From NCBI GenBank assembly GCA_964499705.1, contig CAZCME010000011.1, positions 122,206 to 142,205 of the forward strand: DNA of 20,000 nucleotides, read 5' to 3'. The translations under genes were made by a program, and so were the position numbers. This stretch comes from an uncultured bacterium. GTDB taxonomy: Bacteria > UBA8481. The notes under the pieces were generated by a model. The model saw only the letters and a list, made by a program, of their open reading frames with translations. It was not told the DNA's origin and did no database searches. Positions 12 through 17,792 of the stretch are shown one piece after another (the first letter of the stretch is position 1; every line of letters starts with the position of its first letter).

Positions 12-713
12 ATGAGTCAGCTGGTAATCATCACCAGCCTGATTACGTCGATGGTATGCGTGCAGATGCCGCTGGAGATAGCGGCAGGAAAGGAGATAAG
101 ACAAATGCTCTGGTCGCGTGATTATGGCTTTGTAAGGCGATACGTCGAATTTGTGGTTTTGGAGACCGTTCGTGCAGCGCTGGCGTTATGGATAGTCCTG
201 TGGCACGGCGTCATCTTCGGTCTTGCGGCGGGCGCCGCGATCATACTATCGAGCGATCAAACGCTCCTTTCCATCGTCGCCTGTTATCTCGGCGCGGTGA
301 TCGCGGGCGTCTTCTTCTACGTCGCGACACCGGGCATTTCCTGGCGAGTCATACGGGATTCCGTCGGTGAGGCGCACCTGGAGGTCGGTGTGCTTCCTCA
401 TGAAACGATGGCGGTTGAAGAGTTTGTTCGATGTATACGAGAAAAATGGTTTCGAAATCTCAACGAAGGAGGCGAGGAAGATATCGAAGCCGATGAGGTT
501 GTGGCTGCAGCGGCGGAGGCGGAGTCTTTGCCGTGCGACTGTGACGAAGGAGGAGCGGATGCAAACAAAGCTGAAGAAACGGGTATCGGGGATGTCGCGC
601 GTGAGGATTGCCCTCTCGCGCTCAATGGCGAGGAATTCGTCCTGCGGGACGCATTCCTCATGGACGTGGCGCCGATCGATTCGGGCGCTCAAGGAGAACA
701 ACATGTTCAATAA
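12..713 (+). CDS. Hypothetical membrane protein with acidic C-terminal tail
   Basis: 233-aa ORF with 2-3 hydrophobic segments (ALALWIVLWHGVIFGLAAGAAIIL; LLSIVACYLGAVIAGVFFYVA) followed by an Asp/Glu-rich tail. The ATG at 12 is part of ATGA (12-15), consistent with coupling to an upstream gene. The stop overlaps the next gene. Confidence 0.75.
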   Translation: MSQLVIITSLITSMVCVQMPLEIAAGKEIRQMLWSRDYGFVRRYVEFVVLETVRAALALWIVLWHGVIFGLAAGAAIILSSDQTLLSIVACYLGAVIAGVFFYVATPGISWRVIRDSVGEAHLEVGVLPHETMAVEEFVRCIREKWFRNLNEGGEEDIEADEVVAAAAEAESLPCDCDEGGADANKAEETGIGDVAREDCPLALNGEEFVLRDAFLMDVAPIDSGAQGEQHVQ

Positions 714-1521
714 TCGTTGGTGCGTCGGCGCTCTCGTCGGCGCGATCATGCTCGGCGGCGTCGCCTGTTCGAACGACAAGCAAGTTCGGCAGCCGGTTCA
801 TCCGGTGATTACGCCGACACCGTCAAATCAGTATCCGGCGTCCGCGATCACGGCGCCCCAGCCCGTCTTCGCTACTCCTGTCGCGAATCCGGTCGTTGCT
901 CCTGCGCCTGTCGCGCCGGCGCCCGTGTATGTGGCGACCGCGGTGGTTTCAGCGCCGGAGCCGGTGGATCCGTGGCTGGTATGGAAAAGCGCGGAGCGTG
1001 GTTCGATGAATCGGTTCGAGCCGTCCGGCGAAGATCTCGTGATACCGCTCGGGATACGATCGCTTCCGGATAATGCGAGCGATGCTCAGGCAATTCGCTG
1101 TCTGGCTCTTCTGGACAACATCAGCTCGGAGGTCGAGCGCGCAAAGAGAAATCCCGCTTACCGCGTGGAAGTCTCGACGATCAAGGTTGAAGGATTCACC
1201 CTCTCGGGCGCAACAGAGGGCCGATCGTCGGAGGTACTCTACGGGCGACTGCCGTGGAAAGCTGTCGAGCAGGGTGTCGTAACGAATCGTGAGATCGCCT
1301 ATCTGGCGGGTAAGCCCGTCGCGGTCAGAGCAGCGCTCGTCGTCCCAAGTTCGAAGCTGTCGAATTCTGAACGCCGTACCATTTCGTCGCTGGCGCATGA
1401 TCAGATGTTGCGGGACAGCGCGGCCGTGGATGATCTTGTGACCGCAGGCCGTGCCAAGGCAGTGGCTGCCGAGGTGGACGCTCGCTTTACCGCGACAACG
1501 TCGAACGATACCTGGCGATAA
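703..1521 (+). CDS. Putative lipoprotein with Pro/Ala/Val-rich linker
   Basis: AAGGAG at 691-696 precedes the ATG at 703, which is a better start than 367. The N-terminus MFNNRWCVGALVGAIMLGGVA-C is a signal peptide II with a lipobox Cys at residue 22. A P/A/V-rich linker and a globular domain follow (272 aa). Confidence 0.8.
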   Translation: MFNNRWCVGALVGAIMLGGVACSNDKQVRQPVHPVITPTPSNQYPASAITAPQPVFATPVANPVVAPAPVAPAPVYVATAVVSAPEPVDPWLVWKSAERGSMNRFEPSGEDLVIPLGIRSLPDNASDAQAIRCLALLDNISSEVERAKRNPAYRVEVSTIKVEGFTLSGATEGRSSEVLYGRLPWKAVEQGVVTNREIAYLAGKPVAVRAALVVPSSKLSNSERRTISSLAHDQMLRDSAAVDDLVTAGRAKAVAAEVDARFTATTSNDTWR

Positions 1522-1523
1522 CC

Positions 1524-3077
1524 GTGAATTCGCCATCGTCCGGATTCGTTTTCTTGCTGGTTGCGGGCAGCCTTGCGCTGCCCGCGCTTGCGGTCGCGGA
1601 ATCCCTCTGGCTGGATGTCAAGCCCGGGACACCGGTTGGCGTGTCCTGGGCCGGGGCCGAGACCATGACGCTCATCGAGGAGGCGTCGGCATCCGGCAGG
1701 ACGCAGGAGGAAGCGACGCGCGCCGCGGTGGTCATGGCTCGCCTCAAGCTCTCCTCCTCCTTCGGCATGTCATCGCTTCGCGAGCGAGTCGTCGTCAGCG
1801 AAGATCTCTCCTCTTCGTCATCATCTTCTCGCATGTCGCGTGATGCGTTCGCGGACAAAGTTTCTCCGGATTTACCCATGTCGCTCCTTCGTGCGATCAG
1901 AATTTCATACTCGGAACTTCATGACGCTGATCGCACGAGTTTCATGGCTCGGGCAACGCTGGGTCTGCCTGCCCAAAATCTGGAGGACGCGCGGCGCCGG
2001 GCTCTGGAAACGTTGAAAGATTTACGCTCGGCCGCAGAAAGGGAGCAATCGAACCAGCGCGATGCCATCATGCGCCAGGGGATAGCGGCGCTGCAACGCG
2101 CGCGCACCTCGGTCGGGGTCTCGAACTGCATCGAAGAGATCGCGGCGATCGAAGGTTCGTTGGAGGAAGCGGCCAATCTCGGGGTTCCGACGCCTCAAAC
2201 CGAATCGCTTCGTACTTCTTGTCGTGTTGGCCGCGAGTGGATCCAGAGATACACGAATCATACATTCAACTGTGACATCATCGAGTCCTCCTCGACCGTG
2301 TCGCCTCTTGCTCGATTGATCGAGGCTAATGTGATACGGGAAGCCGGCATGCTTGGATTGACCGCACGCGTCCGTCATTTGATGGCGGGCTCCATCCGTA
2401 GTAGTGCGACGCCTGGTTCGGGAAGCATGTTTCGCGTCGCGCGACGGACGACTCCCTCGCTGATCCGTCTTGCCGATTCGGCCGTCTTCTTTCCTAACGT
2501 CCGGTTTGCCCGCGACGTGAGCGATCGCGATTTCATGACGGAGGGCGCCGATCTCGAAATTAACCTTCCGACATTCGGTCCCGCGGAACGGGCTCTTTCA
2601 GCACTGGGGCCTTCGTCAGTGCCGGCCTTTGATGGTCTCGCGCGTTCGATTTCCATATTTTCCCGCGCCCGATTCAGAGCGATGCCCGATTTGTCGGCGG
2701 ACACCGTGGAGGTTTCTGATCGGGCGCGTACTGGAAATCCTGATCGATCTCGGACCGGAGTTCTTCTTGCGATCGATAACGGTCACGGGCTTATTCACGT
2801 CGAAGGCCGGACCTGGGTCTGGGTCTGGCTGCCCAACGTCACCGATCCTGATCTTCCTGGGTGGCGTGTGATTGCGCCCGCTCTCCGGATCTATTCGAAG
2901 CCAGATGCCCGCGGCCTTCGCAGATGGATTCGCTCGGCGCGGCAGAACGAAGGATTTTTGTATCAGGGCGAGGGAGAGGAATGGTTGGAGTTGGCGGACG
3001 AGAGGGGGCGCGTGGTCTCTGTCTGGAAGAACGATTTGAACGGCTCGGCCGGAGGAGAGGGATGGGTGAATCCATGA
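1524..3077 (+). CDS. Exported protein, N-terminal region weakly LPP20-like
   Basis: 517-aa ORF with a GTG start 2 nt after the previous stop and a signal-peptide-like N-terminus (FVFLLVAGSLALPALA). The segment ASASGRTQEEATRAAVVMARLKLS resembles the G-x-x-x-x-E-A-x-x-x-A-x-x-x-A-R pattern of LPP20-like domains. The family call is weak. Confidence 0.7.
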   Translation: MNSPSSGFVFLLVAGSLALPALAVAESLWLDVKPGTPVGVSWAGAETMTLIEEASASGRTQEEATRAAVVMARLKLSSSFGMSSLRERVVVSEDLSSSSSSSRMSRDAFADKVSPDLPMSLLRAIRISYSELHDADRTSFMARATLGLPAQNLEDARRRALETLKDLRSAAEREQSNQRDAIMRQGIAALQRARTSVGVSNCIEEIAAIEGSLEEAANLGVPTPQTESLRTSCRVGREWIQRYTNHTFNCDIIESSSTVSPLARLIEANVIREAGMLGLTARVRHLMAGSIRSSATPGSGSMFRVARRTTPSLIRLADSAVFFPNVRFARDVSDRDFMTEGADLEINLPTFGPAERALSALGPSSVPAFDGLARSISIFSRARFRAMPDLSADTVEVSDRARTGNPDRSRTGVLLAIDNGHGLIHVEGRTWVWVWLPNVTDPDLPGWRVIAPALRIYSKPDARGLRRWIRSARQNEGFLYQGEGEEWLELADERGRVVSVWKNDLNGSAGGEGWVNP

Positions 3078-3730
3078 AGGCACTGGTATTGTTGATTCTC
3101 ATCATCATCATTTTCGTGAGCATCGTGACAAGCGTCCGCTCCGACTATCAGCATCAATTGCTTAACGCTCTGTTGGGTCGCGAAGCAAGCGCGGTTGCTC
3201 CCATATTGCCCGGAGTAGGGGCATCTCCGGATTCGATCGCGTTGATCGGATTGACCGGGGGCGCAATGGTGCCGCTCTACAGAGCGGCGGACCCTTTGTC
3301 ATACGAAGCGACGCCGATCCGCTGGCTTCTTAAGCGCGATCTGGCTCGATATCATTTTGTCAGCGCTAGTCCGGATGGATTCCTTATCATCGCGGATTCC
3401 AACGATACCACGAGGAATATCCGCGTCTTCGCGGGTGATGTCGCGCCTGATACGAAGGGCGATGTCGGTCTTGATCCCTTTGCGGATTCGCGAGCTCTTG
3501 TCGGTGATCAGGCCGTCGAGATCTTTGACATGGATCCAACCTCGAGGCTGTCCGCACCCGCTCATATTGTGACGTCCGGCGCGCTCATCACGCTCGCCTA
3601 CATTCCCGATGACGCTCCAGATGCCGCGCCAACACCATTAGTGCTATGCCGGCGCAGTAACGGACGATTCATTACAGGTATTGTGCCGAAAGCCGTTCTT
3701 GAGCAATCCGAGGAGGCAGATCATGACTAG
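3074..3730 (+). CDS. Hypothetical exported or membrane-anchored protein
   Basis: ATGA overlap at 3074-3077. The N-terminus MKALVLLILIIIIFVSIVTSV is a signal or anchor helix, followed by a beta-rich-looking domain (218 aa). Confidence 0.75.
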   Translation: MKALVLLILIIIIFVSIVTSVRSDYQHQLLNALLGREASAVAPILPGVGASPDSIALIGLTGGAMVPLYRAADPLSYEATPIRWLLKRDLARYHFVSASPDGFLIIADSNDTTRNIRVFAGDVAPDTKGDVGLDPFADSRALVGDQAVEIFDMDPTSRLSAPAHIVTSGALITLAYIPDDAPDAAPTPLVLCRRSNGRFITGIVPKAVLEQSEEADHD

Positions 3731-4511
3731 AGTCATTCGCAATCTTCTCGTTCTTTTCACGCTATCCGCTGTGATAGCTCACTTCTGGCGACCGGATTCC
3801 GGCGGACCAGGTGGCCGGTGGATGACGAATATAATTGTCGAGGTGCCGTCCGTGATGGAGCGCTTCGTCGGCCCGTTGGGATTTCGCATTGGTGCCACCC
3901 TCGCGATTGCATGGGCACTGGTTCGCATTCGCGCTCGATGGCGTAAATCAGAGTTATGGAGGATTCAGCGCCCCTCGGTTTCCACCGTGGGCCCACGCCG
4001 CGCACCATTAACCGTCACGGTGATGAATCCGGAAGAAGCCGCTCTTACGCGTCGGAAGGAAATTCGGCGCCTGGCCGCTCATCATCTCCTGGATCGTGAC
4101 AATTCCGGAATGAGCGAGCGCGAGGCGAGGCGGTTGGTCGCGGAATGCGCAGCAGCATTCCTGGATGAGAATTCCGATCTGGACGTTCATTCCGCAGCGA
4201 AGCGGCTTGCAGATGAAGCGGATCACCTCCGTCGGCAGAAGGCAGAGGACAGGGAGCGTGTTCAACGTCGGCAAAGAATTCTGGATCAGGCCGTGCGTTT
4301 TCTAGTGGAAGGAACTCCGAAGTTGACTCCCGCAGTTGCTCAGGCGCGTGTCGCGGCCGTGGCGAAGGACATATTGATCGGCGGCACGAAGGAAGACGAA
4401 GCCAAAGTGGCGGAGCGATTGGCGATCGCTGCATATTTGGAGCGCATTGATGAGGGGCGTATCCATTCAGATGCGGAAACGGGCTCATATCGAATGCGAG
4501 GCGCGCAATGA
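3723..4511 (+). CDS. Membrane protein (two TM segments) with a tandem-duplicated helical domain
   Basis: AGGAGG at 3711-3716 precedes the ATG at 3723. Two hydrophobic segments are followed by two copies of a helical unit of about 60 aa (nt 4050-4232 and 4266-4445); 262 aa. Confidence 0.8.
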   Translation: MTRVIRNLLVLFTLSAVIAHFWRPDSGGPGGRWMTNIIVEVPSVMERFVGPLGFRIGATLAIAWALVRIRARWRKSELWRIQRPSVSTVGPRRAPLTVTVMNPEEAALTRRKEIRRLAAHHLLDRDNSGMSEREARRLVAECAAAFLDENSDLDVHSAAKRLADEADHLRRQKAEDRERVQRRQRILDQAVRFLVEGTPKLTPAVAQARVAAVAKDILIGGTKEDEAKVAERLAIAAYLERIDEGRIHSDAETGSYRMRGAQ

Positions 4512-5095
4512 ACAGAACGTCGATTCACAAAAGGGAGGCAAAGAAGCTTTCCATTACGACGCTGTCGCGGGCGGAAAAGGACTTCTCCAAAGCGTTGGCG
4601 GAACAAGTGCTCGAACATGTCTCAACGACCGAAGTTGCTCGATTTCGGGGCGGCGACGGCTCAATCGATGAGCGAGGTTTTCTGCAATCGAAGTCCCTGC
4701 GCGGGATCGTAAAGCGGATGATCGGTACGGCAGCCTGTCCGCTTCCGGTCTCATTCTCGTCGAATGCGGCACTTTTGATGCGTATCGGGCGTTCGGTCCT
4801 TCGGCGATTGTCGCATTGCCCGGTCGCCGCATGGAAACCACTCGATGTGAAATGGGAATTTCTGAAATGCTTCGGTAACGAGCATGGGAGAGCCCTTGCG
4901 TTTCGGGTCGATCAGGAAAAAGTTCTCATATTGCTTATTTCGGATAAACAGAATGTCGCGATTTCGTGCGATGAGATCGCTTCGTTGCGTTGCCTCATAC
5001 TCGAAGAGAACACCCTTTTAAGCGGACGCGTCAAGTTCGTGATGGGTGTACCGATATCCACTCGCCATTGCCGGGATAAGGAGGTCGAAGCATGA
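4508..5095 (+). CDS. Hypothetical protein
   Basis: 195-aa ORF with ATGA overlaps at both ends (4508-4511 and 5092-5095). No motif recognised. Confidence 0.7.
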   Translation: MNRTSIHKREAKKLSITTLSRAEKDFSKALAEQVLEHVSTTEVARFRGGDGSIDERGFLQSKSLRGIVKRMIGTAACPLPVSFSSNAALLMRIGRSVLRRLSHCPVAAWKPLDVKWEFLKCFGNEHGRALAFRVDQEKVLILLISDKQNVAISCDEIASLRCLILEENTLLSGRVKFVMGVPISTRHCRDKEVEA

Positions 5096-6903
5096 CCGCC
5101 GCCGTTCTGGCTTTTGAGCGACTCGATCGATACAAGCGAATGCGCCTCCTCCAGAAGGTGAATCGCCTGCGAAAGCTCCTGGTTCCTGAAGTCTTCGCCT
5201 CTCTGCGGTGCGTTCTCGATCATCCTGTGGCTGACCTGCGATCACTCTGTATGGAATTGAAGAGCGCCGGATTGATACCAGCCGCTATCACGGAATTCAC
5301 GGAGGCCTTCACGCCACCGGAGCCTGATCATTACGCCTCGTCCGGATTCGTTCGACTTCTCGAAGTGATAGAAGAGAAGTGCGAAGTTCTCGATCCTCCT
5401 CGCTTCATGCGCCTTCTTGCCGAACATCCGGAATGTCCGTGCCGCAGAAAGTTGGCGCATGCATTCAGAATTCTTCCGCCCACGAAGCACCTGCGCGGTT
5501 TGCCTGTCGGCGACGACCGCGCGCGCCGACTGATTTCCGGGCTTCGTTCCACTGAAATTCAATTCGCAAAAAAGGCGATTGAGCGTAACGCGCCATTCAT
5601 CATCGTGGACGACGGTGGCGAAGCGGCCAGCCTTTTTGCGCTCGCGGCCGAAAAGGCGAAGGTATCGGCATGGGAATTGACCATCGCCAATGCCTCGGAA
5701 ATGAACGAAGTCACGCTTGAGCTGGCCTCAGTTCAGCCGTCCCATGTCCTGATTTCGTGGGTCGAAGGGCTGGAATGGAAGACTATCCTTTCTTTCTGCG
5801 CCGGCACGACGACACCCGTACTCAGCATGGGATCGGCGTCCTTCGGTCTCTTCACACGTGATCGTGCGCATGCGGGTGTGCCTTACATCGTGATCGGCGC
5901 GCCACAAGACGAGTATGTATCGATCGGCATTCAATCGGCGTATGAAGTTCCGGAAGCGGCGGCGAAATATGTGGCGAGGCTGGTTTCTGTATTAAGGCGT
6001 GTTCCTCCAATCCGGGTCGTGTCGAGCGTGCTGGAGGATTCTCAAGTTGTCCGCGAATCCGAGAGTCTGCGCGCCCGCGCGGCCCGCGAATTTCCGTATG
6101 ACATCGCGGACCTCGAAGATCTCAGAACAGGCCTCGCTCGGATCGATACCGAATGGGCGAAGAAATTCGTGGGGCAGACAAGAGCGAAGGAGTCCATTCT
6201 CACGGCTCTCGAGTCACATTTGGACGAATGGAACCTCGGGCCAAGCCGGATACTTTTATTGGCCGGTTCGCCCGGCACCGGAAAGACGTCCGCGGCGAAC
6301 TGGCTGGCATCACTGATGACGGGAGGCCGAAAAGTATTCTTGAGCGGCACCGAGTATCTGCATGAATATTCGGTCAGCACGCTTCTCGGCGCAGGCCCGG
6401 GATATGTGGGTCACGAGATGCCTGGGGTACTGGATCCGATATTCACTCATTCCCTTACAACGCTCATTGTGGACGAGGTCGATCGAGCTCATCCGAGCAT
6501 TGCACGACTCCTGCTCGTTCGTCCCGGTACGAACGGCTCCATTGTCGACTCGTTTGGCCGCACGATGCGTCCCCCACTCATTATTGGAACCACAAATCTC
6601 GGTTATACGGGCGCCGGTCTGGCCGGGCTCGCGCGCGATACCGAAGACGAGGCGTGGCATGTACGAAGGTTGCTAACCGAAGAACTCGGGGAAGAAGTGC
6701 TCTCCCGATGCCAACTGGTGCTCTTTCATTCTTTCACCGCGGAAGAAATCGATGAGTTGATCGCAATGTCGTTGGGAAATAAATATTCGAAGGAGGAACT
6801 TTCGGCGGTATGGAAGAAGCTGGGGCCGCGGCATCGAAATTACTCGGCTCGCGAGGTGCAGAGCGCATGCGGCGCTGTTACCGGAAAGAGGAATAGTGCA
6901 TGA
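5092..6903 (+). CDS. Clp/Hsp100-like AAA+ ATPase with intact D2-type module and degenerate D1-like region
   Basis: Strong RBS TAAGGAGGT at 5077-5085. The C-terminal half has ClpA/B D2 motifs: FVGQ, Walker A GSPGTGKT (6265-6288), EYLHEYSVSTLLGAGPGYVG pore loop, Walker B IVDEVDRAHP, DSFGR and TTNLG. Confidence 0.88.
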   Translation: MTAAVLAFERLDRYKRMRLLQKVNRLRKLLVPEVFASLRCVLDHPVADLRSLCMELKSAGLIPAAITEFTEAFTPPEPDHYASSGFVRLLEVIEEKCEVLDPPRFMRLLAEHPECPCRRKLAHAFRILPPTKHLRGLPVGDDRARRLISGLRSTEIQFAKKAIERNAPFIIVDDGGEAASLFALAAEKAKVSAWELTIANASEMNEVTLELASVQPSHVLISWVEGLEWKTILSFCAGTTTPVLSMGSASFGLFTRDRAHAGVPYIVIGAPQDEYVSIGIQSAYEVPEAAAKYVARLVSVLRRVPPIRVVSSVLEDSQVVRESESLRARAAREFPYDIADLEDLRTGLARIDTEWAKKFVGQTRAKESILTALESHLDEWNLGPSRILLLAGSPGTGKTSAANWLASLMTGGRKVFLSGTEYLHEYSVSTLLGAGPGYVGHEMPGVLDPIFTHSLTTLIVDEVDRAHPSIARLLLVRPGTNGSIVDSFGRTMRPPLIIGTTNLGYTGAGLAGLARDTEDEAWHVRRLLTEELGEEVLSRCQLVLFHSFTAEEIDELIAMSLGNKYSKEELSAVWKKLGPRHRNYSAREVQSACGAVTGKRNSA

Positions 6904-9068: not shown

Positions 9069-9763
9069 AAGCGGGAGCACGCCTGCTCGCCGGCTCCGCA
9101 TTGGTGATTGCAACATGCGCGCTGGGAAAGAATCTCGAGTTTCTGTGCGCAGGCGCCTACTTTGCTGCGCGCTGGGATGTGATCTGCTTCGCGCTGGGAT
9201 TCTGCGTGGCAGTCGGCATTAAGTTGATGATGCCCGAAATATGCCGGTTCGTGGAGACGCTCGATCATGAGATGTGCCACGCCATCGCCGCTTTTGCCAC
9301 GGGCGGCCGCGTGGAAGCGCTGGGCGTCTCCAGGGCGGGTTATGAGGGAGAAGTGAGACATACCGGCCGCCCCCTCTTTTCTTCGATCGCTCCCTACGTT
9401 CTCCCTCTCGCATGCATCGGCGCAACGGGAATTGTGGCGATTTCCGCCGAGCGCTATCGCCCTTGGGTGATCGGGTTATACGGCACTACGTTTCTCTTCT
9501 ATTTTGCGCGACTTGTGCGGGATCTCCAAGCCACGCTTCGGCTTTCATATGAACTGAGCGATATCAAACACCATCGCGTTCTATCCATTCTGGTGATCGC
9601 CGCAACGAACGCAATCTTGTGCGGAATCATGCTTTCGATCGTCTTTCGGATTTCGACGCCGCGGAGTTTCCTGGCGGCATCCGGAAGTGATGCAATCGTG
9701 ATCAGCCGAGAAATAGCGCGGCTGGGATGGACAATTTCGCAGGAGGTGTTGCGATGCCTGTGA
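9062..9763 (+). CDS. Membrane zinc metallopeptidase, M50B-like
   Basis: HExxH motif HEMCH (9266-9280) in the context HEMCHAIAAFATGGRV, followed by G-x-V, IAPY and a later SD. Multiple TM segments. This layout is typical of Peptidase_M50B. Confidence 0.8.
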   Translation: MLKAGARLLAGSALVIATCALGKNLEFLCAGAYFAARWDVICFALGFCVAVGIKLMMPEICRFVETLDHEMCHAIAAFATGGRVEALGVSRAGYEGEVRHTGRPLFSSIAPYVLPLACIGATGIVAISAERYRPWVIGLYGTTFLFYFARLVRDLQATLRLSYELSDIKHHRVLSILVIAATNAILCGIMLSIVFRISTPRSFLAASGSDAIVISREIARLGWTISQEVLRCL

Positions 9764-10893
9764 TTCATCAAACCAGCGATTCGGAACTTCTCGAAGCCCT
9801 CGAAATTGCGGCCGACGCGGCACCGGAGCCCATCCTTATCCTCGGAGAATCAGGATCGGGCAAGGAGATTATAGCGCGCGCCATAGTGGCGGCATCGTCC
9901 CGCGCCGATCGTCCGCTCATTCAGATTAACGCTTCCACGATCAGTGATGAGCTTGGAGATACATCGGTCTTCGGACATCGACGCGGCGCCTTCACAGGCG
10001 CGGACCGGGCACATGATGGATTGTTGGCCGCCGCTCATGGAGGCACACTTCATGTGGATGAAGTCGCCGATCTTTCGCTTCGCAATCAAGCTAGAATTCT
10101 GCGAGTGCTGGATCGACGCGGTGAGTATCGAAGAGTAGGCGAGGTGCTAATTCGCCAGGCGGACCTCTGGATAATATGTTCGACCAACCGCGATCTGAGC
10201 TTAGCCGTCCGCGACGGGCATTTCCGCGCCGATCTCATGTACCGCTTGGATGTCATCCGCGTCGACGTCCCTCCGCTTCGGGCGCGTCGATGCGATATTC
10301 CCGGGCTTATTGACGCAATTTTGCGAGATATATCTTTTGACCTGAAACGTTCCGTCCAGATCACGAGCGGTGCGCAGCGCGCTCTGATTGACCATCCTCT
10401 TCCAGGCAACATCCGCCAATTGCGAAATGTCCTCGTGCGAGCGGCTCATATGTGCAAAAGAGCCGACAGGTCAGCGCGGGAACTGGTGATCTCCGATACT
10501 GTGATCGATAAATGTCTGAGAATGAGCGATACGGGAATCGTGATCGATCGATCGACTGCGCCGGCGGTCCGGGAGCCCGTTCGGGACAAGGAAGCAGTTC
10601 AGCATCTTGCGCGCGACTGCGAATCGATTCGGCACATGGCTCGAAAGATCATCTCGATGGCGACAACCGGGGAAATGAAGATCACGGATCACACGATATT
10701 CGGAGAGGTCCTCCACGATCCCGGGGCCGTTGCTCTTTACCTCGTTCTGGAAGAAGAGGTCAGAACACTCGGCGGGAAGAGATGCAGCGTCCTGAGAAAC
10801 CTCGGCTGTGATCCCAAGGCGTTCTCGTCGTACGTGGCAAAAATCACCAAGCATCACCCCGAAGTTGTCCAAGCGGCAATGAAGCTCATATGA
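9754..10893 (+). CDS. Sigma54-dependent transcriptional activator (bEBP) lacking an N-terminal regulatory domain
   Basis: AGGAGGT at 9741-9747 precedes the ATG at 9754. Motifs: GESGSGKE, FGHRRGAFTGA, GGTLHVDEV, QARILRVL, TNRDL, FRADLMYRL, PGNIRQLRN. The C-terminal GGKRCSVLRNLGCDPKAF is Fis-HTH-like. Confidence 0.92.
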   Translation: MPVIHQTSDSELLEALEIAADAAPEPILILGESGSGKEIIARAIVAASSRADRPLIQINASTISDELGDTSVFGHRRGAFTGADRAHDGLLAAAHGGTLHVDEVADLSLRNQARILRVLDRRGEYRRVGEVLIRQADLWIICSTNRDLSLAVRDGHFRADLMYRLDVIRVDVPPLRARRCDIPGLIDAILRDISFDLKRSVQITSGAQRALIDHPLPGNIRQLRNVLVRAAHMCKRADRSARELVISDTVIDKCLRMSDTGIVIDRSTAPAVREPVRDKEAVQHLARDCESIRHMARKIISMATTGEMKITDHTIFGEVLHDPGAVALYLVLEEEVRTLGGKRCSVLRNLGCDPKAFSSYVAKITKHHPEVVQAAMKLI

Positions 10894-11150
10894 CGCGGTT
10901 CGCTGAATCAAGGCCTGGCGATTTGAATCAGCCGGGCGCCTATGCAGACTTCGTGGCACCAGCAATGGATGCGCTGATGCGCCGCGACGGTATTAGCGCC
11001 GAGGAAGCCGAGTTTCTCGTCCTGCGTGCCTTGCAGCTGGTCATCGTACGCTCTTCAGCGGAACTTGTGTCGGTCGTGGATGACATGCGCGCGCCGGAAT
11101 GTGCGGTGCGCTCTTCCGTGGACGAGGTCCGGGCATGCGCACCGGCTTGA
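10890..11150 (+). CDS. Small helical protein, ANTAR-like
   Basis: ATGA overlap with the bEBP gene; 86 aa. AMDALMRRDGISAEEAEFLV resembles the ANTAR pattern A-x-G-I-L-M-x-R-x-G-I/L-S-x-E/D-E-A-F. The family call is tentative. Confidence 0.6.
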   Translation: MTRFAESRPGDLNQPGAYADFVAPAMDALMRRDGISAEEAEFLVLRALQLVIVRSSAELVSVVDDMRAPECAVRSSVDEVRACAPA

Positions 11151-12478
11151 TGTCGGGTGCCGCCGCATATTCGAAGGAGCATCTTCGGCTGCTGAACTCG
11201 CTAATCGATGATTATCTCTCCGGTGGAGCATCGCTATCGGAAGTTCTTCACAGGGAAATCGAGGAGCTCAATGGGAGTCGAAAACTCCTCCTGCCGGCGG
11301 TGCTCGTAAGTTGTCTGGCAACCGCAGAAGATGTGAAAGCGTTTCTCACGACGTTCCGGTGTACCGTCTCCTCCAATTTCGAGGATGAGCCCTATCCCGC
11401 GCTCCGTTGTAAGCCGTGGACGCGCTCGCTGAGACGAGCATTAGCTCGCGACCGGCGGATCTGGGAGATCTTTTCGGAGTCGCGTTATTCGGCGGAGATC
11501 GCGGCCGCGTTCGTAACGAAACTCGATGCGGATTCGCTGCTGGCAGAGGGGGCGGTGCGCTTTGTCTGCGAAAATCCGAGGGGAACCGGAGTCCTCATCC
11601 GGATGCTGCGTGATCATGACCTGCCCGAGTGGCTCGTTCGAAAGGTCAAGACAGCGCTGAGGGAATTGGTCGACGAGTCGCCGCAGCCCCCGCGGCATCT
11701 GTTGAAGAGAGGGCGGGAGATATTCCGCGCATGCGAGACGGATTCGCGTGATCGCCACGCAGGGTGGGCTATTGACGTCGCGATCGAGGTGGCGCGGATG
11801 CTCGGTCCGTCGTCGAGTGTCTTTGTGAACTGCGAACGGCTGATATTGGAGCAGCCTGATTCCGTTGAGAGTGACATTCAGTCCCTTTACAGCCCGCTCA
11901 AGGCTGGCCAAAGGGCACACACGAAGATGAACAAGTCGGCGTGGAGGCAATTTCTTGTCGGCGCGAATTACGAAGCGCGAGCGCTGAAGCTTGTGGAGTC
12001 CGGTGCGCTCGCACGTCATGTGGACTCGGAGAGGATTGCGATGGTCGTCTCCTGCCTCATTCCGCCGTGGACTCTTCTGGAGAAACTAAGGGGGTTGGCA
12101 TTCGACGTTCTACAGAGTGGTCCGAATCAGCGATTCGAAGATGCGCTTGCTGCGATCGTCGCGAACTGGATGAAATACGCGGAGCCGCGGGAGGTCGAGC
12201 AGGGCGCGATTGGTGTCAAGTCGAAGTTGCTGACGTGGATCATCGCATCCGGTGCAAACCCTGCATTTACCGATACCCCCTTGCGCGAAATTGCATTCGC
12301 CGGCCGTACCGACACGCCAAGCGCTCTTCTTCTCCCGATTTCCTCCGAGTCGAATAGCCGACCGCGCAGATTTGTCTGGCTTTTACCGCCTGACATCGTG
12401 AGAGCGATGCTGGAGACCGGTGATAGCGGAAATCGGGACACCCACCGCGAGCCTGAGGCCCGATTTTGGGGGAAGTGA
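11135..12478 (+). CDS. Hypothetical protein, predicted largely alpha-helical
   Basis: ORF of about 445 aa overlapping the previous gene. The start is either ATG 11135 (GAGG upstream) or ATG 11150 (TGATG overlap). No motif recognised. Confidence 0.75.
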   Translation: MRTGLMSGAAAYSKEHLRLLNSLIDDYLSGGASLSEVLHREIEELNGSRKLLLPAVLVSCLATAEDVKAFLTTFRCTVSSNFEDEPYPALRCKPWTRSLRRALARDRRIWEIFSESRYSAEIAAAFVTKLDADSLLAEGAVRFVCENPRGTGVLIRMLRDHDLPEWLVRKVKTALRELVDESPQPPRHLLKRGREIFRACETDSRDRHAGWAIDVAIEVARMLGPSSSVFVNCERLILEQPDSVESDIQSLYSPLKAGQRAHTKMNKSAWRQFLVGANYEARALKLVESGALARHVDSERIAMVVSCLIPPWTLLEKLRGLAFDVLQSGPNQRFEDALAAIVANWMKYAEPREVEQGAIGVKSKLLTWIIASGANPAFTDTPLREIAFAGRTDTPSALLLPISSESNSRPRRFVWLLPPDIVRAMLETGDSGNRDTHREPEARFWGK

Positions 12479-12613
12479 GTGCGTTGCGACGATCGATAGC
12501 GTGGTTGATGCCTGTCTGGTGGAAATCCGTAGCAATTCCATAGAACTATGATGCCCGCCTGACAGTCGTACTTGAGTTTCATCGACTTGCATCTCGGGTT
12601 CAGCGTGATTTCG

Positions 12614-12629
12614 AGGCATGACAATTGCC
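12614..12629 (+). promoter_or_regulatory. Candidate sigma54 (-24/-12) promoter
   Basis: AGGCATGACAATTGCC has GG (12615-16)-N10-GC (12627-28) with GGCAYG and TTGC boxes. It sits in the only sizeable intergenic gap of a locus that encodes a bEBP. Against it: two flanking consensus positions mismatch, and the predicted start site would be only a few nt before the ATG at 12646. Confidence 0.35.
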
Positions 12630-12645
12630 CTTGAAGGAATCCGCT

Positions 12646-13350
12646 ATGCCATTTAGCTTCAATATCGATACCACCCCCTCTCGTGTCGCGCTCCTGGACC
12701 TTGATTCACCTTCATGGAGCGAGGACTGTGCCCGGCTCGGCGGGCGGGATGATGTTTTCGTCATCACGGACTCGGCATCTCTCGGCAAGGTCACGAGGCC
12801 CAATCTGATCCTGCGCCGTCCGGGATTGCGAACAGTCCTCGTGCCGCAGGCCGCCGATATTCCGTCTACCGAACTCGTTGCGGAAATATTTGCTCGTGGA
12901 ATCCCGCGGGCATATGGCCTCGTCATCTGCGCTCAGCAGCAGTCATTAAGCACCGTGATCGAAGCGATCGCACATGACGGTTCGGAAAGTGGATACCGAA
13001 AGATCCTGGGTGAAATCGGTCTTCGCGCACATGTACGCGAACAACGACTTGGTCGCCTGCTGGTGGCGACGACATTCCACTGCGCACGTACGCGAGATAT
13101 CGAATGCGCGGCCGACAATACCATTTCATACGGCACCCGGCTCGAGAATACTGGGAGGCCATGGCGTGAAGCATTCGTTCACCTTGCAGTCGAGAAGTCG
13201 CATCAGAAGGTAAATGTCGAACCACTTACTGATCGCGCCTTCGGTCGCTTGCGGAATGAGGAGCGGCTTCATCTGCAGATCGTCGGACGCCCCGGGATGC
13301 GAAGGGGCGGCGCGGACCTCTGTGCGCTCTTCGGGATGTGCGCGGGATGA
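12646..13350 (+). CDS. Hypothetical protein, degenerate DnaB C-terminal/RecA-fold-like
   Basis: AAGGA at 12634-12638 precedes the ATG at 12646; 234 aa. The ordered segments RVALLDLD, VLVPQAADIPSTEL, YGLVIC, YRKILGEIG, DIECAADNTISY and VHLAVEKSH parallel DnaB [45 protein letters not shown] and AEIIIAKQRN. No Walker A/B. The ORF is solid, the family call is tentative. Confidence 0.6.
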   Translation: MPFSFNIDTTPSRVALLDLDSPSWSEDCARLGGRDDVFVITDSASLGKVTRPNLILRRPGLRTVLVPQAADIPSTELVAEIFARGIPRAYGLVICAQQQSLSTVIEAIAHDGSESGYRKILGEIGLRAHVREQRLGRLLVATTFHCARTRDIECAADNTISYGTRLENTGRPWREAFVHLAVEKSHQKVNVEPLTDRAFGRLRNEERLHLQIVGRPGMRRGGADLCALFGMCAG

Positions 13351-14948
13351 ATTCGCCTCAACACAATGAAATATCATGTGGTTCACAGGTTCCTTCGAAT
13401 CCACCCAGGGTGATCTGTTCGTTCATGGATGACGATCACGACCGGATCACAAACACTGCCGGACAATACAATGACATCTCCGACCAGGTGAAACTGTTTA
13501 CGGCAATGGATCTCGTATCCGGATATCTCTCGCGCCGAATACTTGCGTGGCCGCCTTCAAACCTTCGGTGCGCACTCGGAGCCATTTTTGCCCGCGTGCC
13601 ATTATTTCTGATCGGAGGCGCAGGTGTTGGAAAGACGCTTCTGATGAGAACAATTGCGGATCTTGCAGGTGAGGGAGCGGCAATTCATTACGATTTATCT
13701 ACCTGCGATATCTTCCACATGGTGGGTCTCCCTGACGTCAGTAGTTACCACTCAGACGGCAAAACGGACCTCTCCTTCCGCACGCATTCGCGAAGCCTTC
13801 TAAGGAATCCCGGCTATATTTTGTGGGATGAAATCTCTCGGTCCACTTGCGAAAACCAGGCCCTCCTCATGGAAGCGATCGAATCCTCATCCGTGCTCGG
13901 GTTCAAAATCACGAGCCGTCACGTTCTAGCCTCGAATCCGACCGGCAACGGCTTCAAGAGCGTGCATGGCGTCGATGCGGCCTTGGCGGACAGGGCACTC
14001 GTCATGCTGAACGTCGACCAAGGGGCGTGGATCTCGAATCCGGAGCGGGCGGGCAAGTACGTCGTGCTGGCACTCGACGGGCTGGAATTCGGATCGGCTC
14101 CGACCGATGAGGAGAGGGCGGCCTTCTCCTTCCTTTCGACCTCGGTCCCATCTGCAGCATCGTCACTTCTGCAGAGCTTCCTCCGCAACGACGATCGACG
14201 AGCGGGTCTTGCGACGTTTACCAAGGAACTGGCGATGCATGCATCGTCGCTGGGGAGGGTCATTTCGAATCGGGTTCTCGTACGAACAGCACGCTTCCTG
14301 CCCTATCTCATCCTTCTGAACAAGGGAGACACGGAATCTGCCGTCCGTGATTGCGTAATCTCCTGTCTTCAGCACCGGTGCGAATTGCAAGAGGAGGCTG
14401 TCTCGCTCTGCGCGCGCCATGCCTATGAGGGACTGATGATGCCGCGTGATCCCGAACGCGAATTGTTGACGACGCTGTCGCGTATAAAGGACTCCGAAGG
14501 AAAGATGAGGGCTATCGTGGATTTTAAGCCTGATCCAATCTTTCTCACGTCCCAGTTTCGCCATGCACTCCAGTGCGTACGCGAATCGTGTAACGACAAC
14601 AGCATACTGCTGGAGATGGGAGTAGCGACCGTTTCGCGATGGATACGCGGCGGTTGCAAGAACGCGGTTGATATCAAGCGTGGGCTGGTCGACTCACTTC
14701 TATCCTGCCGCGCGAACCTGTTGCAGCGGTATTTGGAGCATGCAGTACCGCACTTTGCGCCTTCGCGTCAGCATCCTGTGGCACGTGCGGCGAACGCGGG
14801 CGCAAGTCAACTCGGGGATATCGAAGTGGAATTGGGGACCGATGATACTATCGGTGTGAATTCGCGGTTTTTTGCGACATTGGAAGAGCGATACGGTTCG
14901 AAGTATCAGGAAAGGCTGAGGAGGGAAGAACGTGCGGTCATCGGATGA
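13347..14948 (+). CDS. MoxR-type (AAA_5/AAA_3-like) AAA+ ATPase with C-terminal helical extension
   Basis: ATGA overlap at 13347-13350. Motifs: PLFLIGGAGVGKT Walker A (13614-13637), ILWDEISR Walker B followed by NQALLMEAI, sensor-1 ASNP, DAALADR arginine finger and ISNR sensor-2-like; 533 aa. Confidence 0.85.
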   Translation: MNSPQHNEISCGSQVPSNPPRVICSFMDDDHDRITNTAGQYNDISDQVKLFTAMDLVSGYLSRRILAWPPSNLRCALGAIFARVPLFLIGGAGVGKTLLMRTIADLAGEGAAIHYDLSTCDIFHMVGLPDVSSYHSDGKTDLSFRTHSRSLLRNPGYILWDEISRSTCENQALLMEAIESSSVLGFKITSRHVLASNPTGNGFKSVHGVDAALADRALVMLNVDQGAWISNPERAGKYVVLALDGLEFGSAPTDEERAAFSFLSTSVPSAASSLLQSFLRNDDRRAGLATFTKELAMHASSLGRVISNRVLVRTARFLPYLILLNKGDTESAVRDCVISCLQHRCELQEEAVSLCARHAYEGLMMPRDPERELLTTLSRIKDSEGKMRAIVDFKPDPIFLTSQFRHALQCVRESCNDNSILLEMGVATVSRWIRGGCKNAVDIKRGLVDSLLSCRANLLQRYLEHAVPHFAPSRQHPVARAANAGASQLGDIEVELGTDDTIGVNSRFFATLEERYGSKYQERLRREERAVIG

Positions 14949-15994
14949 CCGTAGATAGAAGTCCGAGCGAGCAGATTAGAGGGTTGAAATCTGCCTGGGC
15001 GTCATCGCGACGACGTGTCATCGACGTGCTCGCGGCTGCATTGTCGACACCAACCTCAACACTCGCTCGTGCTGCTATTCGATTCTGCCTGGAGGGTGAG
15101 CGCCGCGAAGCTCTTCTGAAACATCTCGTCGCTTGCCGAAAAGGAGACAAAGTGCTCGCGATGATGGCGGCCGCCGTGAGCGAGAATGAAGATGGATTCA
15201 AGCCGACGTCGTTTAGAGGCATGATTCTCATTCTGCGAAAGGCCGTGTTATCGCCGGTTTCGAAAGAAAATGCGACAAAGCCGGATTTTCTGCGAGTGAT
15301 CGAGAGGCAGGGCGCGACATCATTGATTGTGGCGCTGGCGCGCATCTCCGCGTCGATGCCGGAGATTCGGCGGGCCGAGAGTCTGCTCTGGGAACAGCAG
15401 AATCACGGTCTCGACCTCCGAAGTCAGACCGCGGCACTCTATCATGAGAAGCGTGTGCTGCGAATCTCGGATCATCCTTCGCGAAAAAAGGATGATACGG
15501 CCGACGCAATACGTCGGCGCCTGCTGGAAGGAAGTATTTCACGGAAGGAATTGTTTACAGTGATCTCGAATGACGGGGTGCGGGGCGGGGAGGCCAAGAA
15601 ACTCGCCCGTGTTGCTACTCTTCTTCTTTCCGATTGCGAAGTGCGCGAGGCGCTCGCAAGACTCCTTCCGGACCTCGGGAAACCGCCGGGTATGATCTCT
15701 CTGAGTTACATTATGCATGGGGTGATCGAGGCTTCGAAGCGGAGTCTTCAACCGCGCGCACTCAGCATCGGCGAATATGCCATTCTGACGAAGCAACCCG
15801 AGAAATGGTTCTTTGCTCCCACTTGTACTCCTGCGTACATCCAGAAAGGAAGCCGCCTTCGTGTCATCCATGATTCTCTGGAGATTACCGTGGTCGAAGG
15901 AGTAGATAAGGAGTCGCAGAACGGTGTTGCGGTCGAAGCGCCGCTCGCGGACAAGTTCGCGTTTCTTGTGCCGCTGGCTGTTGGGCTGGAATGA
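14945..15994 (+). CDS. Hypothetical protein downstream of MoxR
   Basis: ATGA overlap; 349 aa, basic and mostly helical. No vWA MIDAS motif (DxSxS) or HExxH seen. Confidence 0.72.
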   Translation: MTVDRSPSEQIRGLKSAWASSRRRVIDVLAAALSTPTSTLARAAIRFCLEGERREALLKHLVACRKGDKVLAMMAAAVSENEDGFKPTSFRGMILILRKAVLSPVSKENATKPDFLRVIERQGATSLIVALARISASMPEIRRAESLLWEQQNHGLDLRSQTAALYHEKRVLRISDHPSRKKDDTADAIRRRLLEGSISRKELFTVISNDGVRGGEAKKLARVATLLLSDCEVREALARLLPDLGKPPGMISLSYIMHGVIEASKRSLQPRALSIGEYAILTKQPEKWFFAPTCTPAYIQKGSRLRVIHDSLEITVVEGVDKESQNGVAVEAPLADKFAFLVPLAVGLE

Positions 15995-16055
15995 AACAAT
16001 CCCCATTCACCAGATTCTGTGGCCGGGTCGCCTTGACGAGGAAGAACTTCGCTCA

Positions 16056-16520
16056 ATGCCCATCTCCATCACTCGCGGCGCGTTTATCGCGGATGGCGTA
16101 CTCCCGGACAAACTGATGAGTGGATTCCGCGAATTCGTCGAAGAGCAGAAGGGTATTCGCGCACTTATCTGCGATGGTCTCGAACGCTACATTTGCGAGC
16201 CAGTGCATGACCCGAGAGAGTATCATAATCGATTGTCATCCATCGTGACGAGATTAGCGACGCTCGGTACGGATGTTGGGATTCCGATTCTGCTCTCCGC
16301 ATATATCCGTCGGGCTGCCAGGGATCGTGTCCCTACTCTCGCTGATGTTGATGGTGGTTCGAGAATCACCGGCATTTCGCGGGGGGTGGTTTTACTTCAT
16401 CCAGATTCTATCGGCATGATGGACGAGGTCGAGATCCGATTCCATTGCGGAAAGCCGCGACGATTGCTACTGAGCAAGGCGCGCCTGAACCGAGAACTCT
16501 GCCGGTTCGAGGAAGCATGA
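16056..16520 (+). CDS. Degenerate DnaB helicase C-terminal-like domain protein
   Basis: GIRALICDGL, YHNRLSSIVTRLATLGTDVGIPILLSAYIRR, RVPTLADVDGGSRI, VVLLHP and LCRFEE align in order with DnaB [59 protein letters not shown] and YTRFEN. No Walker A. The start is uncertain: ATG 16056, or TTG 15981/15924 in the same frame. Confidence 0.68.
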   Translation: MPISITRGAFIADGVLPDKLMSGFREFVEEQKGIRALICDGLERYICEPVHDPREYHNRLSSIVTRLATLGTDVGIPILLSAYIRRAARDRVPTLADVDGGSRITGISRGVVLLHPDSIGMMDEVEIRFHCGKPRRLLLSKARLNRELCRFEEA

Positions 16521-17356
16521 ACATCCTCGTCAAGATGGATTACTTCGCGAATGGCGAAAGGGCGACCTCCATCGGGATCGTCGCGGATGGATGTTCATTC
16601 CGGAACCCCTGCGGGATCCTCTGTCGCAATCAGGAATATGAATACGTCTACGGCGAGTTCTCCTACTGCGTGGCGCCTGCTCGAAAAACATTCGACGGCG
16701 AGCCCCTGGACATGCAGGTGATCGTCAGACAGGCCAGAAAATATTCGATACTCGATGTCATCCAACCTCGCGCGGATTGGATTGTGCGGTTCTCCGTGCT
16801 CAGGCGTGATGTGCGAAATCCCATTCGTCCCCTATCGACAGCTCAACTCAGACTGGCCGATTCCATAATCGAGGCGGAATCCGAGGATCTAGAACATGCT
16901 GTCGCCGCGTGGGTCGGACTGTGGACGGTATCCGGAGTCACGGGGTTGGATTATTCGGACGTTGGCACTCTGGCGAAGGGGGCGCGCTCGATCGCTCGGC
17001 AAGTTCAGCTATCGACGAGCGACTTCAAGGGCAAGCTCAAGAGGTTCCTGCCCGCGTTGTTGCCGAAGCGGCAGGAAAGAACGGGGCTCATTGTCGTAGT
17101 CACGCACCGTGGGAACGTCTCCCTGAGCATCTGGGAAGACGTCATGAAAGCGATTAATAAGCAGGTATCGGCTGAACCTGAGGTGGACATTCTCCAACAG
17201 TGTTTTGTTCTGCCAGACATGCATCCGGATCACATGCGCATTGTCATCTTTGACTGCAGCAACGTGGGAAGCGATTCAAGCAAGCCTGCCGCGAGTGCCT
17301 CTGGAATGACGAAGCGCGGTGCCCGACAAATCGCAGATGAGAGCGGAGAGGAATAG
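16517..17356 (+). CDS. Protein with FtsZ C-terminal-like half (H7/T7 loop plus C-terminal subdomain), no GTPase signature
   Basis: ATGA overlap; 279 aa. [30 protein letters not shown] resembles FtsZ [55 protein letters not shown]...[13 protein letters not shown] resembles [24 protein letters not shown]...ESMGDEIRVTVIA. GGGTGTG is absent. Confidence 0.7.
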   Translation: [279 protein letters not shown]

Positions 17357-17668
17357 CTCATAACGAATTGGTCACTGCTAACATTCGGCGAGGAGCATGG
17401 GCGAATTCTCAGATCCGCGATGCCGTTCGGACGATTCGATCCGATGGGGGAGATACGTGACCGGCCGGGGCACGTCGTGGTTGTGCACTGCTCGGCGGGG
17501 GTGGCAAGGACAGGGGTAACCTGCTGCCTTATCGCGCAGAGGCTTCTGTCGTTGCCTGACGCAAAAGCGATACTGAACTGGGGCGAAAATGCGGGATTGG
17601 CATTCTTTCCGGGCATTGTGCAGGCGATCGTGGAGCTGACACATCGCGCGACGAGGGGTGGCGAATGA
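17357..17668 (+). pseudogene. Truncated Cys-based protein tyrosine/dual-specificity phosphatase
   Basis: P-loop VVVHCSAGVARTG (HCX5R, 17486-17512). The open frame runs 103 codons from directly after the TAG at 17354-17356, with the first ATG at 17420. This is too short before the P-loop to hold the usual general-acid loop region. Confidence 0.6.
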
Positions 17669-17716: not shown

Positions 17717-17792
17717 GGCGGGGTAGCTCAGCGGTTAGAGCGGCGGTCTCATATGCCGTAGGTCGGCGGTTCAAATCCGCCCGCCGCCACCA
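17717..17792 (+). tRNA. tRNA-Met (CAT), elongator type
   Basis: 76-nt cloverleaf: D arm GCTC/GAGC, anticodon loop CT-CAT-AT, T arm GGCGG-TTCAAAT-CCGCC, discriminator A and encoded CCA. The G1-C72 pair and the lack of three consecutive G-C anticodon-stem pairs argue against an initiator tRNA. Confidence 0.93.

Follow-up and report, generated by a model that had tools for sequence, protein, structure and literature searches.

A proposed variant MoxR-type conflict module adjoining an orphan, putative sigma-54/Clp/M50B envelope operon in a genomic island of an uncultured bacterium

We describe here a row of 18 genes (g1 to g18) at positions 12 to 17668 of a 20,000-nt stretch, called the window in what follows, which forms the end of contig CAZCME010000011.1 (C11, positions 122,206 to 142,205, GenBank assembly GCA_964499705.1) in the 4.67-Mb, 61% GC genome of an uncultured bacterium of the lineage UBA8481. 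In this row, a putative variant of the MoxR-type conflict modules adjoins an orphan operon that joins envelope proteins, two Clp-type ATPases, an M50B-like peptidase and a sigma-54 activator, a combination that matches no catalogued system and is known from one uncultured organism. The explanation that we prefer, tentatively and with somewhat less than even confidence, takes the window stretch as the right-hand third of a horizontally acquired island of about 60 kb in a groundwater bacterium. Module A, from a promoter upstream of the window to g12, would be a self-activating sigma-54 operon with envelope, Clp and M50B components, and module B, formed by g13 to g17 and the gene fragment g18, would be a conflict module based on a MoxR-class ATPase and devoid of a vWA domain. 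That these are two adjacent, co-directional modules of the island rather than one machine is, in our opinion, a possible though not yet probable view. It is the more economical reading, because the MoxR unit also exists separately and a gap of 167 nt lies at its boundary.

The DNA of the locus is real, intact and unusual. It is present in six sequencing runs from two studies, with identical contig pieces; the contigs of four runs are essentially identical, and a cluster of differences at 13820-14151 resembles cross-mapping of a paralogue of g14. All 18 open reading frames (ORFs) lie on the forward strand, and 98.7% of the sequence from 12 to 17668 is coding. As an initial annotation of the bare sequence had counted, eight junctions are ATGA start/stop overlaps (g3/g4, g5/g6, g6/g7, g7/g8, g10/g11, g13/g14, g14/g15 and g16/g17), and five further short overlaps bring the overlapping junctions of the row to 13. 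Where a single real gap had been reported there, two are present, of 167 nt at g12/g13 and of 63 nt at g17/g18. Several starts are preceded by ribosome-binding sites of the AGGAGG type, no internal stop or frameshift occurs across 17.6 kb, and in each of 21 ORFs examined GC3 is higher than GC2. The gene content also stands as first described: four AAA+ proteins of three classes (g7 and g8 of Clp/Hsp100 type, the sigma-54 activator g10 and the MoxR-class g14), each with intact Walker A and B motifs in a motif scan; a membrane peptidase with an HExxH motif (g9); five envelope proteins at the 5' end; and predicted DnaB and FtsZ domains without their nucleotide-binding motifs. For eleven of the 18 proteins, Pfam gives no match at E ≤ 0.01. 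A rescan of ten proteins or protein parts at E ≤ 10 left seven without any match and gave weak, sub-threshold matches for g3, g5 and g6, the best of them with an E value of 0.018.

The MoxR module and its paralogue at the other end of the island

Module B starts after the 167-nt gap with g13 (12646-13350), a 234-aa protein with a ribosome-binding site and an ATG start, to which no family could be assigned and for which Pfam and the Protein Data Bank (PDB) give no match. It is followed by g14 (13347-14948), a MoxR-class AAA+ protein with Walker A at 13614-13637, Walker B at 13818-13838 and a variable C-terminal part of about 155 aa. This protein has no Pfam match at cut-off and none to AAA_3 or AAA_5 at E ≤ 0.01. 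In a HMMER search of 1.84 billion representative proteins, g14 was the only one above 68 bits, and 108 others match its residues ~60-250. The best 19 of these relatives match AAA_3 in all cases, AAA_5 in 18 and bpMoxR in 17, and the best PDB match of g14 itself is the AAA part of midasin (E 1.3e-7); therefore, g14 probably belongs to the MoxR class.

The partner of g14 is encoded by g15 (14945-15994), a fast-diverging and probably helical protein without a family match in Pfam and PDB searches. The next two genes would encode dead mimics of housekeeping proteins. g16 (15924-16520, the start of which may be 16056) is predicted to have the RecA/DnaB_C fold: an Atlas model (pTM 0.65, sequence from residue 45) reaches TM scores of 0.77-0.84 to DnaB_C/AAA_25 clusters over residues 45-198. 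The Pfam DnaB_C profile gives 18.9 bits (cut-off 27) over its positions 111-218 only, and a motif scan finds no GxxxxGK[ST] P-loop, that is, no Walker A. For g17 (16517-17356), the Atlas model (pTM 0.72) indicates an FtsZ/tubulin fold, with a TM score of 0.66 over 225 residues to an FtsZ cluster, in a comparison of prediction with prediction. It contains no tubulin G-box, as we take this GTP-binding signature to be, and no Pfam Tubulin or FtsZ_C match. Searches of PDB sequences with g12, g13, g15, g16 and g17 gave nothing significant. The row ends with g18 (17420-17668), an 82-aa fragment of a Cys-based tyrosine-phosphatase fold, in which the CX5R loop is intact (17486-17515) and the N-terminal half of the fold is absent. 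Its Pfam matches cover positions 169-189 of 234 in Y_phosphatase (20.9 bits) and 73-110 of 133 in DSPc.

Further evidence on module B comes from a paralogue at the opposite end of the same island. When all ORFs of the genome were searched with the 21 proteins of the operon (three more genes precede g1, as discussed below), 15 matched only themselves, and g7, g8 and g10 matched housekeeping Clp proteins or activators. g14 has a paralogue at C11:82475-84004, and the next gene there is a paralogue of g15. This left module (C11:82475-86863) consists of three genes, encoding the MoxR-like ATPase, the g15-like protein and a protein that combines a zincin (HEAGH) with a vWA domain (DTSGS), and its neighbours include no Clp, M50B or activator gene. 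Comparison of g14 with its paralogue gives 67% identity overall in a mosaic pattern. The core (residues 56-378) is 89% identical, with dS 0.53, dN 0.062 and omega 0.12, so that by its substitution rates the core is under purifying selection, and the last 155 residues are 25% identical. Similarly, the identity between g15 and its paralogue is 24% across 237 aa (E 3e-14). A conserved motor whose C-terminus has been swapped along with the downstream partner suggests that the C-terminus of g14 binds that partner. Complex prediction for g14 and g15 gave scores of 0.65, 0.00 and 0.00 in separate runs.

In other phyla, MoxR-like relatives are followed by a gene that is homologous to the third one of the left module (best E 6e-8). 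An ORF of at least 200 aa follows the MoxR-like gene in 22 of 25 such loci, and among 16 aligned downstream partners, HExxH is present in 13 and a MIDAS motif in 14; the PDB offers a weak match of the zincin-vWA partner to minigluzincin. g13, g15, g16 and g17 match neither the profile of this partner nor the Pfam vWA models. Judged from these comparisons, the window module has g16 and g17 in place of the zincin-vWA partner. A gene upstream of the MoxR-like relatives, common to seven of the 25 loci, is unrelated to g15 and g17, and its sole PDB match is weak and to a coiled coil. Two of these foreign loci deserve mention in their own right. In a metagenome-assembled genome (MAG) of the Myxococcales (L006:4880-15475), a 1682-aa protein with Tubulin_2, Macro and protein-kinase domains is encoded directly before the MoxR-like gene, and a 1348-aa HEAT-repeat protein after it. 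In a Nitrospirae MAG (L020:6917-12984), the order is a 665-aa sigma-54-type AAA+ protein, a 365-aa protein, the MoxR-like gene and the zincin-vWA partner, which is another pairing of an activator-type AAA+ protein with this MoxR family.

These comparisons bear directly on whether the row works as a whole. The initial annotation had proposed one integrated 18-gene machine, and its extended form would be a single system of about 21 genes acting in one pathway and transcribed from the sigma-54 promoter upstream. The common strand, the coding density, the 13 overlapping junctions and the single strong promoter speak for such a system, and so does the 167-nt gap, which contains no terminator-like or sigma-70 promoter-like site. 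The last point also weighs against our own explanation, because without a terminator between g12 and g13 the two modules may share one transcript and work together. On the other side, the unit of MoxR ATPase and partner stands alone at the other end of the island. Moreover, the 25 loci of other phyla never include the Clp pair, the M50B peptidase or other operon homologues: 19 of the 21 operon proteins have no match in any of them, the exception being generic activators in two loci. It should also be borne in mind that adjacency in defence islands is often coincidental. We thus consider the single system unlikely, and the claim of one machine is not supported, as the MoxR unit recurs by itself and the gap falls at the module boundary. 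The same annotation had suggested a stress or anti-invader system, which the setting in an island rich in conflict-type genes supports in part.

It might also be argued that the row is a decaying patchwork of housekeeping remnants on a dead mobile element, without present function. All its proteins are extremely divergent, g18 is only part of a gene, no nucleotide-binding motif is present in g16 or g17, the island contains a truncated activator remnant at another place, and no integrase was found on C11. Against this, 17.6 kb free of internal stops and frameshifts, eight ATGA couplings with ribosome-binding sites, the excess of GC3 over GC2 in every ORF, the intact Walker A/B, GAFTGA and HExxH motifs and the low omega of the g14 core at appreciable dS would all have to be accounted for. 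The intact catalytic motifs, the translational coupling and this omega argue against decay, which we regard as very improbable. The earlier idea that the divergence is maintained is therefore borne out, as regards substitution rates, for one gene.

The putative sigma-54 operon for envelope proteins, a Clp pair and an M50B-like peptidase

The start of the operon is found about 2 kb upstream of the window, as became clear when the upstream sequence was retrieved in line with a check proposed in the initial annotation. With TGGCAC-N5-TTGCA, which we take to be the -24/-12 consensus of sigma-54 promoters, a scan of both strands of the whole genome gave fourteen sites with 10 of 11 matching positions and a single one with 11 of 11. 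This perfect site (C11:120212-120227, forward strand, 1993 nt before the window; L001:18007 corresponds to C11:120212 in L001, a stretch of C11) sits in a divergent intergenic region, at a distance of ~250 nt ahead of the first operon gene. A secreted protein of 301-308 aa and then two lipoprotein-like ORFs are encoded between the promoter and g1, so that the region 0.15-2 kb upstream of the window adds three more envelope genes. Counting these, the operon has about 21 genes, of which the eight at the 5' end encode envelope proteins, and g10 is probably the activator of its own operon; rpoN is present in the genome at C6:159481. On the other side of the intergenic region, the divergent gene (L001:15414-17288, reverse strand) encodes a protein of 624 aa that ends in a methyltransferase domain and has an N-terminus that reads as receiver-like.

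The envelope genes of the window were assigned from a hydropathy scan and from reading the N-termini for signal peptides, lipoboxes and transmembrane segments. g1 (12-713) would encode a membrane protein with about four hydrophobic segments and an acidic C-terminal tail (pI 4.3), and g2 (703-1521), which has an AAGGAG ribosome-binding site upstream, a lipoprotein-like protein with a signal peptide running to a lipobox-like Cys and a linker rich in Pro and Ala; neither matches Pfam, PADLOC or NCBIfam. g3 (1524-3077) is a putatively secreted protein of 517 aa with a signal-like N-terminal segment; it has no Pfam match at E ≤ 0.01 and three weak, sub-threshold ones at E ≤ 10 (best E 0.041). Coupled to it by an ATGA overlap, g4 (3074-3730) has a predicted N-terminal membrane anchor, and g5 (3723-4511) joins an N-terminal transmembrane segment to a basic (pI 10.5) helical domain, for which family searches gave no significant match. 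The last gene before the ATPases, g6 (4508-5095), encodes a basic, cytoplasmic protein of 195 aa with ATGA coupling at both ends. In Pfam it has nothing at E ≤ 0.01 and, at E ≤ 10, one weak sub-threshold match, to LcrR (E 0.074).

The two Clp-type proteins have an unusual arrangement, in which a D2-type protein (g7) is followed by a D1-type protein (g8) as separate polypeptides, each with ~350 extra residues of no assigned fold. In g7 (5092-6903), a Hsp100/Clp D2-type AAA+ module (residues ~346-569) follows an N-terminal region of 345 aa without assigned fold; it contains Walker A (6265-6288), Walker B (6463-6483) and a GYVG pore loop (6400-6411). The module scores 43.5 bits against Pfam AAA_2 (cut-off 27), aligns with positions 553-778 of ClpB in NCBIfam and matches the ClpB D2 domain with a probability of 99.0% in hhalign. 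In g8 (6900-9068), the D1-type module (residues ~170-370, Walker A 7524-7547, Walker B 7731-7751) lies between N- and C-terminal regions without assigned fold. It scores 37.6 bits against Pfam AAA (cut-off 21.2), aligns with ClpB positions 197-336 and matches D1 at 99.2% in hhalign, and its NCBIfam matches correspond to the D1 domain of ClpA, ClpV and ClpB. The best scores of g7 and g8 against NCBIfam equivalogs are 70.6 and 62.7 bits, with cut-offs of 885-1900, and neither protein has a Pfam or NCBIfam match to the Clp_N domain. A degenerate second AAA+ module in the N-terminal region of g7 or the C-terminal region of g8 was considered and rejected, with hhalign probabilities below 1% and Smith-Waterman z values of -1.2 to 2.1 versus ClpB D1/D2, no better than cross-controls. 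Single-sequence AlphaFold2 models have mean pLDDT values of 38.4 (g8) and 37.4 (g7), too low for a comparison of folds.

Next in order, g9 (9062-9763) encodes an M50B-like intramembrane metallopeptidase with the motif HEMCH (9266-9280), four hydrophobic segments and a Pfam Peptidase_M50B score of 38.4 bits (cut-off 26). The regulator g10 (9754-10893) is a sigma-54 activator with a layout of the PspF type, in which the AAA+ domain starts at the N-terminus and a sensory domain is absent. It matches Sigma54_activat (PF00158) with 163.8 bits and also AAA_lid_14, and carries GAFTGA (9985-10002, residues 78-83), which we take to be the sigma-54 interaction loop. Its NCBIfam matches are to the central domain and all below the equivalog cut-offs (198 bits versus 444 for the PspF model). 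Residues 340-364 (10771-10845) read like a helix-turn-helix (HTH) and do not match Pfam HTH_8; a divergent HTH is possible at this C-terminus. g11 (10890-11150), ATGA-coupled to g10, encodes an acidic protein of 86 aa without a family match in Pfam, PADLOC or NCBIfam. The last gene before the gap, g12 (11135-12478), encodes a protein of 447 aa to which no family is assigned, with no Pfam match at E ≤ 10 and no counterpart in the four other genomes of the phylum examined.

The same content could be read as an acquired envelope machine, for secretion, assembly of a surface structure or extraction of membrane proteins, powered by its Clp proteins as ClpV powers type VI and EccA type VII systems, switched by sigma-54 and not devoted to conflict. 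Control by sigma-54 is common for surface structures, the genes for the ATPases come after those for eight envelope proteins, g7 and g8 score 70 and 63 bits against the ClpV model TIGR03345, as well as they do against ClpB, and g8 has a weak match to EccA of the type VII secretion system (E 5e-4). However, no component of a secretion system was recognised: g1 to g6 have no Pfam or NCBIfam match at E ≤ 0.01, and the upstream operon protein gA has none at E ≤ 10. Besides, the NCBIfam scores are all far under their cut-offs, and the context of the island is of conflict type. Hence we judge an envelope machine of this kind improbable as well.

For a self-activating module A beside a conflict-type module B, the observations cover the genes present and their intact motifs, the promoter, the setting in the island, the duplication and the selection on the g14 core; how such a locus might operate, envelope sensing and a decoy role of the dead domains included, is inferred. 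In module A, the membrane and periplasmic set would sense a disturbance of the envelope; intramembrane cleavage, ATP-driven unfolding or both would then remove an inhibitor of g10, for which g11 (coupled, small and acidic), g12 or a membrane-anchored protein are candidates. Once freed, g10 would fire the sigma-54 promoter and thereby create positive feedback. In module B, remodelling by the MoxR ATPase would release or assemble the dead mimics g16 and g17, which might interfere with division or replication and lead to growth arrest or abortive infection; read-through from module A is possible. A more ambitious proposal takes the two modules together, with a sigma-54 circuit of envelope sensors, M50B peptidase and split, inverted Hsp100 driving a MoxR module that lacks vWA and uses dead mimics of FtsZ and DnaB to halt division and replication, as a new type of envelope-triggered dormancy or abortive infection. 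We think that this is quite improbable.

Several points, in addition to the uninterrupted gap between g12 and g13, count against the explanation that we prefer. Generic AAA+ and M50B domains apart, the genes of module A have no detectable relatives, and its proposed function is read entirely from domain logic. Neither a PspA-like nor an anti-activator protein could be recognised, upstream activator sites were not found, and the island's two sigma-54 promoters have no 9-mer in common. The folds of g16 and g17 are assigned from predicted models of moderate confidence, with the pTM values given above. As for mobility, three genes for tyrosine integrases (PF00589) were found in the genome and none on C11, in a search that did not extend to serine recombinases and transposases.

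Island context and rarity of the genes

The gene row belongs to a low-GC tract that extends from ~81 to 140 kb of C11, with GC fractions of 0.48-0.63 compared with 0.60-0.62 for the large contigs. ARAGORN places a tRNA-Met (CAT) on the forward strand at both boundaries, at window positions 17717-17792 on the right and at C11:79718-79790 on the left. Alignment of the two copies over ~75 positions shows 2 differences, which fall in the 5' half, and the 3' halves are identical. In the right copy, acceptor position 6 shows a G.G mismatch and position 38 is changed, and this copy may be the island-borne or decaying one. A relative of the same family (G002) keeps the order tRNA-Pro, aminotransferase and tRNA-Met, after which comes unrelated DNA of 66-71% GC with nothing from the island. 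In one sequencing run, a contig extends beyond the tRNA-Met (3' end at 17792) with sequence unlike that of the window, which could be the tRNA of another organism or a different junction.

The make-up of the tract is that of a conflict or defence island. Its cargo includes an ADP-ribosylglycohydrolase, a GNAT protein, three metallophosphatases, an FGE-sulfatase domain, a Macro domain, DUF5131 and HipA. Two of the metallophosphatases are calcineurin-like phosphoesterases of 292 aa, each paired with a ~735-aa protein without a Pfam match (C11:91846-94944 and C11:100516-103592), and the third lies nearby on the opposite strand. The pairs may represent a further duplicated system of two genes. A second sigma-54 promoter (10 of 11 positions) precedes another operon (C11:107209-117601, or L001:5004-15396) that encodes an ABC permease, an NMT1-type binding protein, two methyltransferases, one of them RsmB-like, three proteins without assigned family and a 596-aa sigma-54 activator; just upstream of it lies a truncated remnant, a 132-aa fragment of an activator lid.

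The rarity of the genes is pronounced. Among 5.8e9 proteins, g8, g12 and g17 found only their own cluster, by a word-limited method in which g8 and g12 were scored only on the ~8000 candidates with the most shared words, and g14 has no relative beyond the AAA core. Searches of viral contigs with g7, g8 and g14, and of metagenome contigs with g14 and with the alignment of g14 and its paralogue, gave no close relative. For the four proteins searched (g8, g12, g14 and g17), full-length relatives outside this organism thus number zero at the level of sequence similarity. In PADLOC-DB 2.0, 14 of the 18 proteins have no match, and the matches of g7, g8, g10 and g14 are confined to the P-loop or AAA regions of models that are otherwise unrelated, in agreement with the first impression that the row corresponds to no named system. 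Full-text literature searches gave no description of the gene set, and the supplements of Kaur et al. (2020) may list related architectures. The locus shows the extent of orphan genes in the islands of candidate phyla, since paralogues in the same genome are lacking for 15 of 21 proteins, and billions of public proteins include no relative of the four that were tested.

If the preferred explanation is true, several consequences follow. A MoxR conflict module could exchange its vWA-peptidase partner for dead division and replication proteins, and the paralogue with the ancestral type of partner in the same island would provide a natural before-and-after pair. Moreover, Hsp100-type D1 and D2 rings could exist as two translationally coupled proteins, and a sigma-54 activator could sit within a conflict-type operon that is probably driven by the same activator.

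Comparison with known systems

The closest known relatives in logic of module A are two pathways of the envelope stress response. In the Psp response, the activator PspF acts on a sigma-54 promoter together with membrane sensors. Like PspF, g10 has an AAA+ domain and no sensory domain, a C-terminal DNA-binding part being possible, and the sigma-54 promoter, the membrane proteins in the regulon and the proposed release of an inhibitor upon envelope stress are further likenesses. In contrast to Psp, no homologue of PspA, PspB or PspC was recognised, the activator lies inside the operon that it probably controls, and Clp-type ATPases and an M50B peptidase are present. In the sigma-E pathway, intramembrane proteolysis by RseP is followed by degradation by ClpXP. 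Module A likewise encodes a membrane metallopeptidase of the M50 clan, AAA+ unfoldases and a transcription activator together with envelope proteins. The differences are that g9 is M50B-like and not a site-2 protease of RseP type with PDZ domains, that no ClpP or anti-sigma factor was found, and that the regulator is a sigma-54 activator instead of a sigma factor of the extracytoplasmic function family. By analogy, module A resembles the logic of both pathways, with no specific component in common.

The Clp pair itself can be compared with the class I Hsp100/Clp proteins ClpB, ClpA and ClpV. The D1 type of g8, the D2 type of g7, the Walker motifs, the arginine fingers or sensor motifs and the Tyr-containing pore loops are as in this class. 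Unlike its members, the pair has D2 before D1 on two polypeptides, no Clp_N domain and about 350 residues of no assigned fold in each protein.

For module B, the comparison is with the MoxR-vWA "ternary" conflict systems of Kaur, Burroughs, Iyer and Aravind (2020; PMC7159879). In that paper, MoxR systems are described with inactive NTPases, including MinD and FtsK types, and with rare FtsZ/tubulin effectors, which agrees with the background on MoxR, inactive NTPase and FtsZ/tubulin conflict systems given in the initial annotation. Module B shares with these systems a MoxR-class AAA+ protein with a fast-diverging partner, effectors of inactive NTPase fold or related to division, and a setting among conflict genes; the paralogous left module has in addition the vWA partner fused to a metallopeptidase. 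The effectors are variable and inactive in the window as well, since g16 and g17 have no NTP-binding motifs and g15 and the C-terminus of g14 are ~25% identical between the paralogues. On the other hand, the window module has no vWA domain and g14 falls below every Pfam MoxR cut-off. A dead DnaB_C-like domain is not mentioned in the paper, where DnaB and RecA have 0 occurrences and sigma-54 and M50 do not appear. We have not filed module B as a member of the MoxR-vWA systems because of the missing vWA domain; it fits as a variant of the wider group of MoxR-centred conflict systems.

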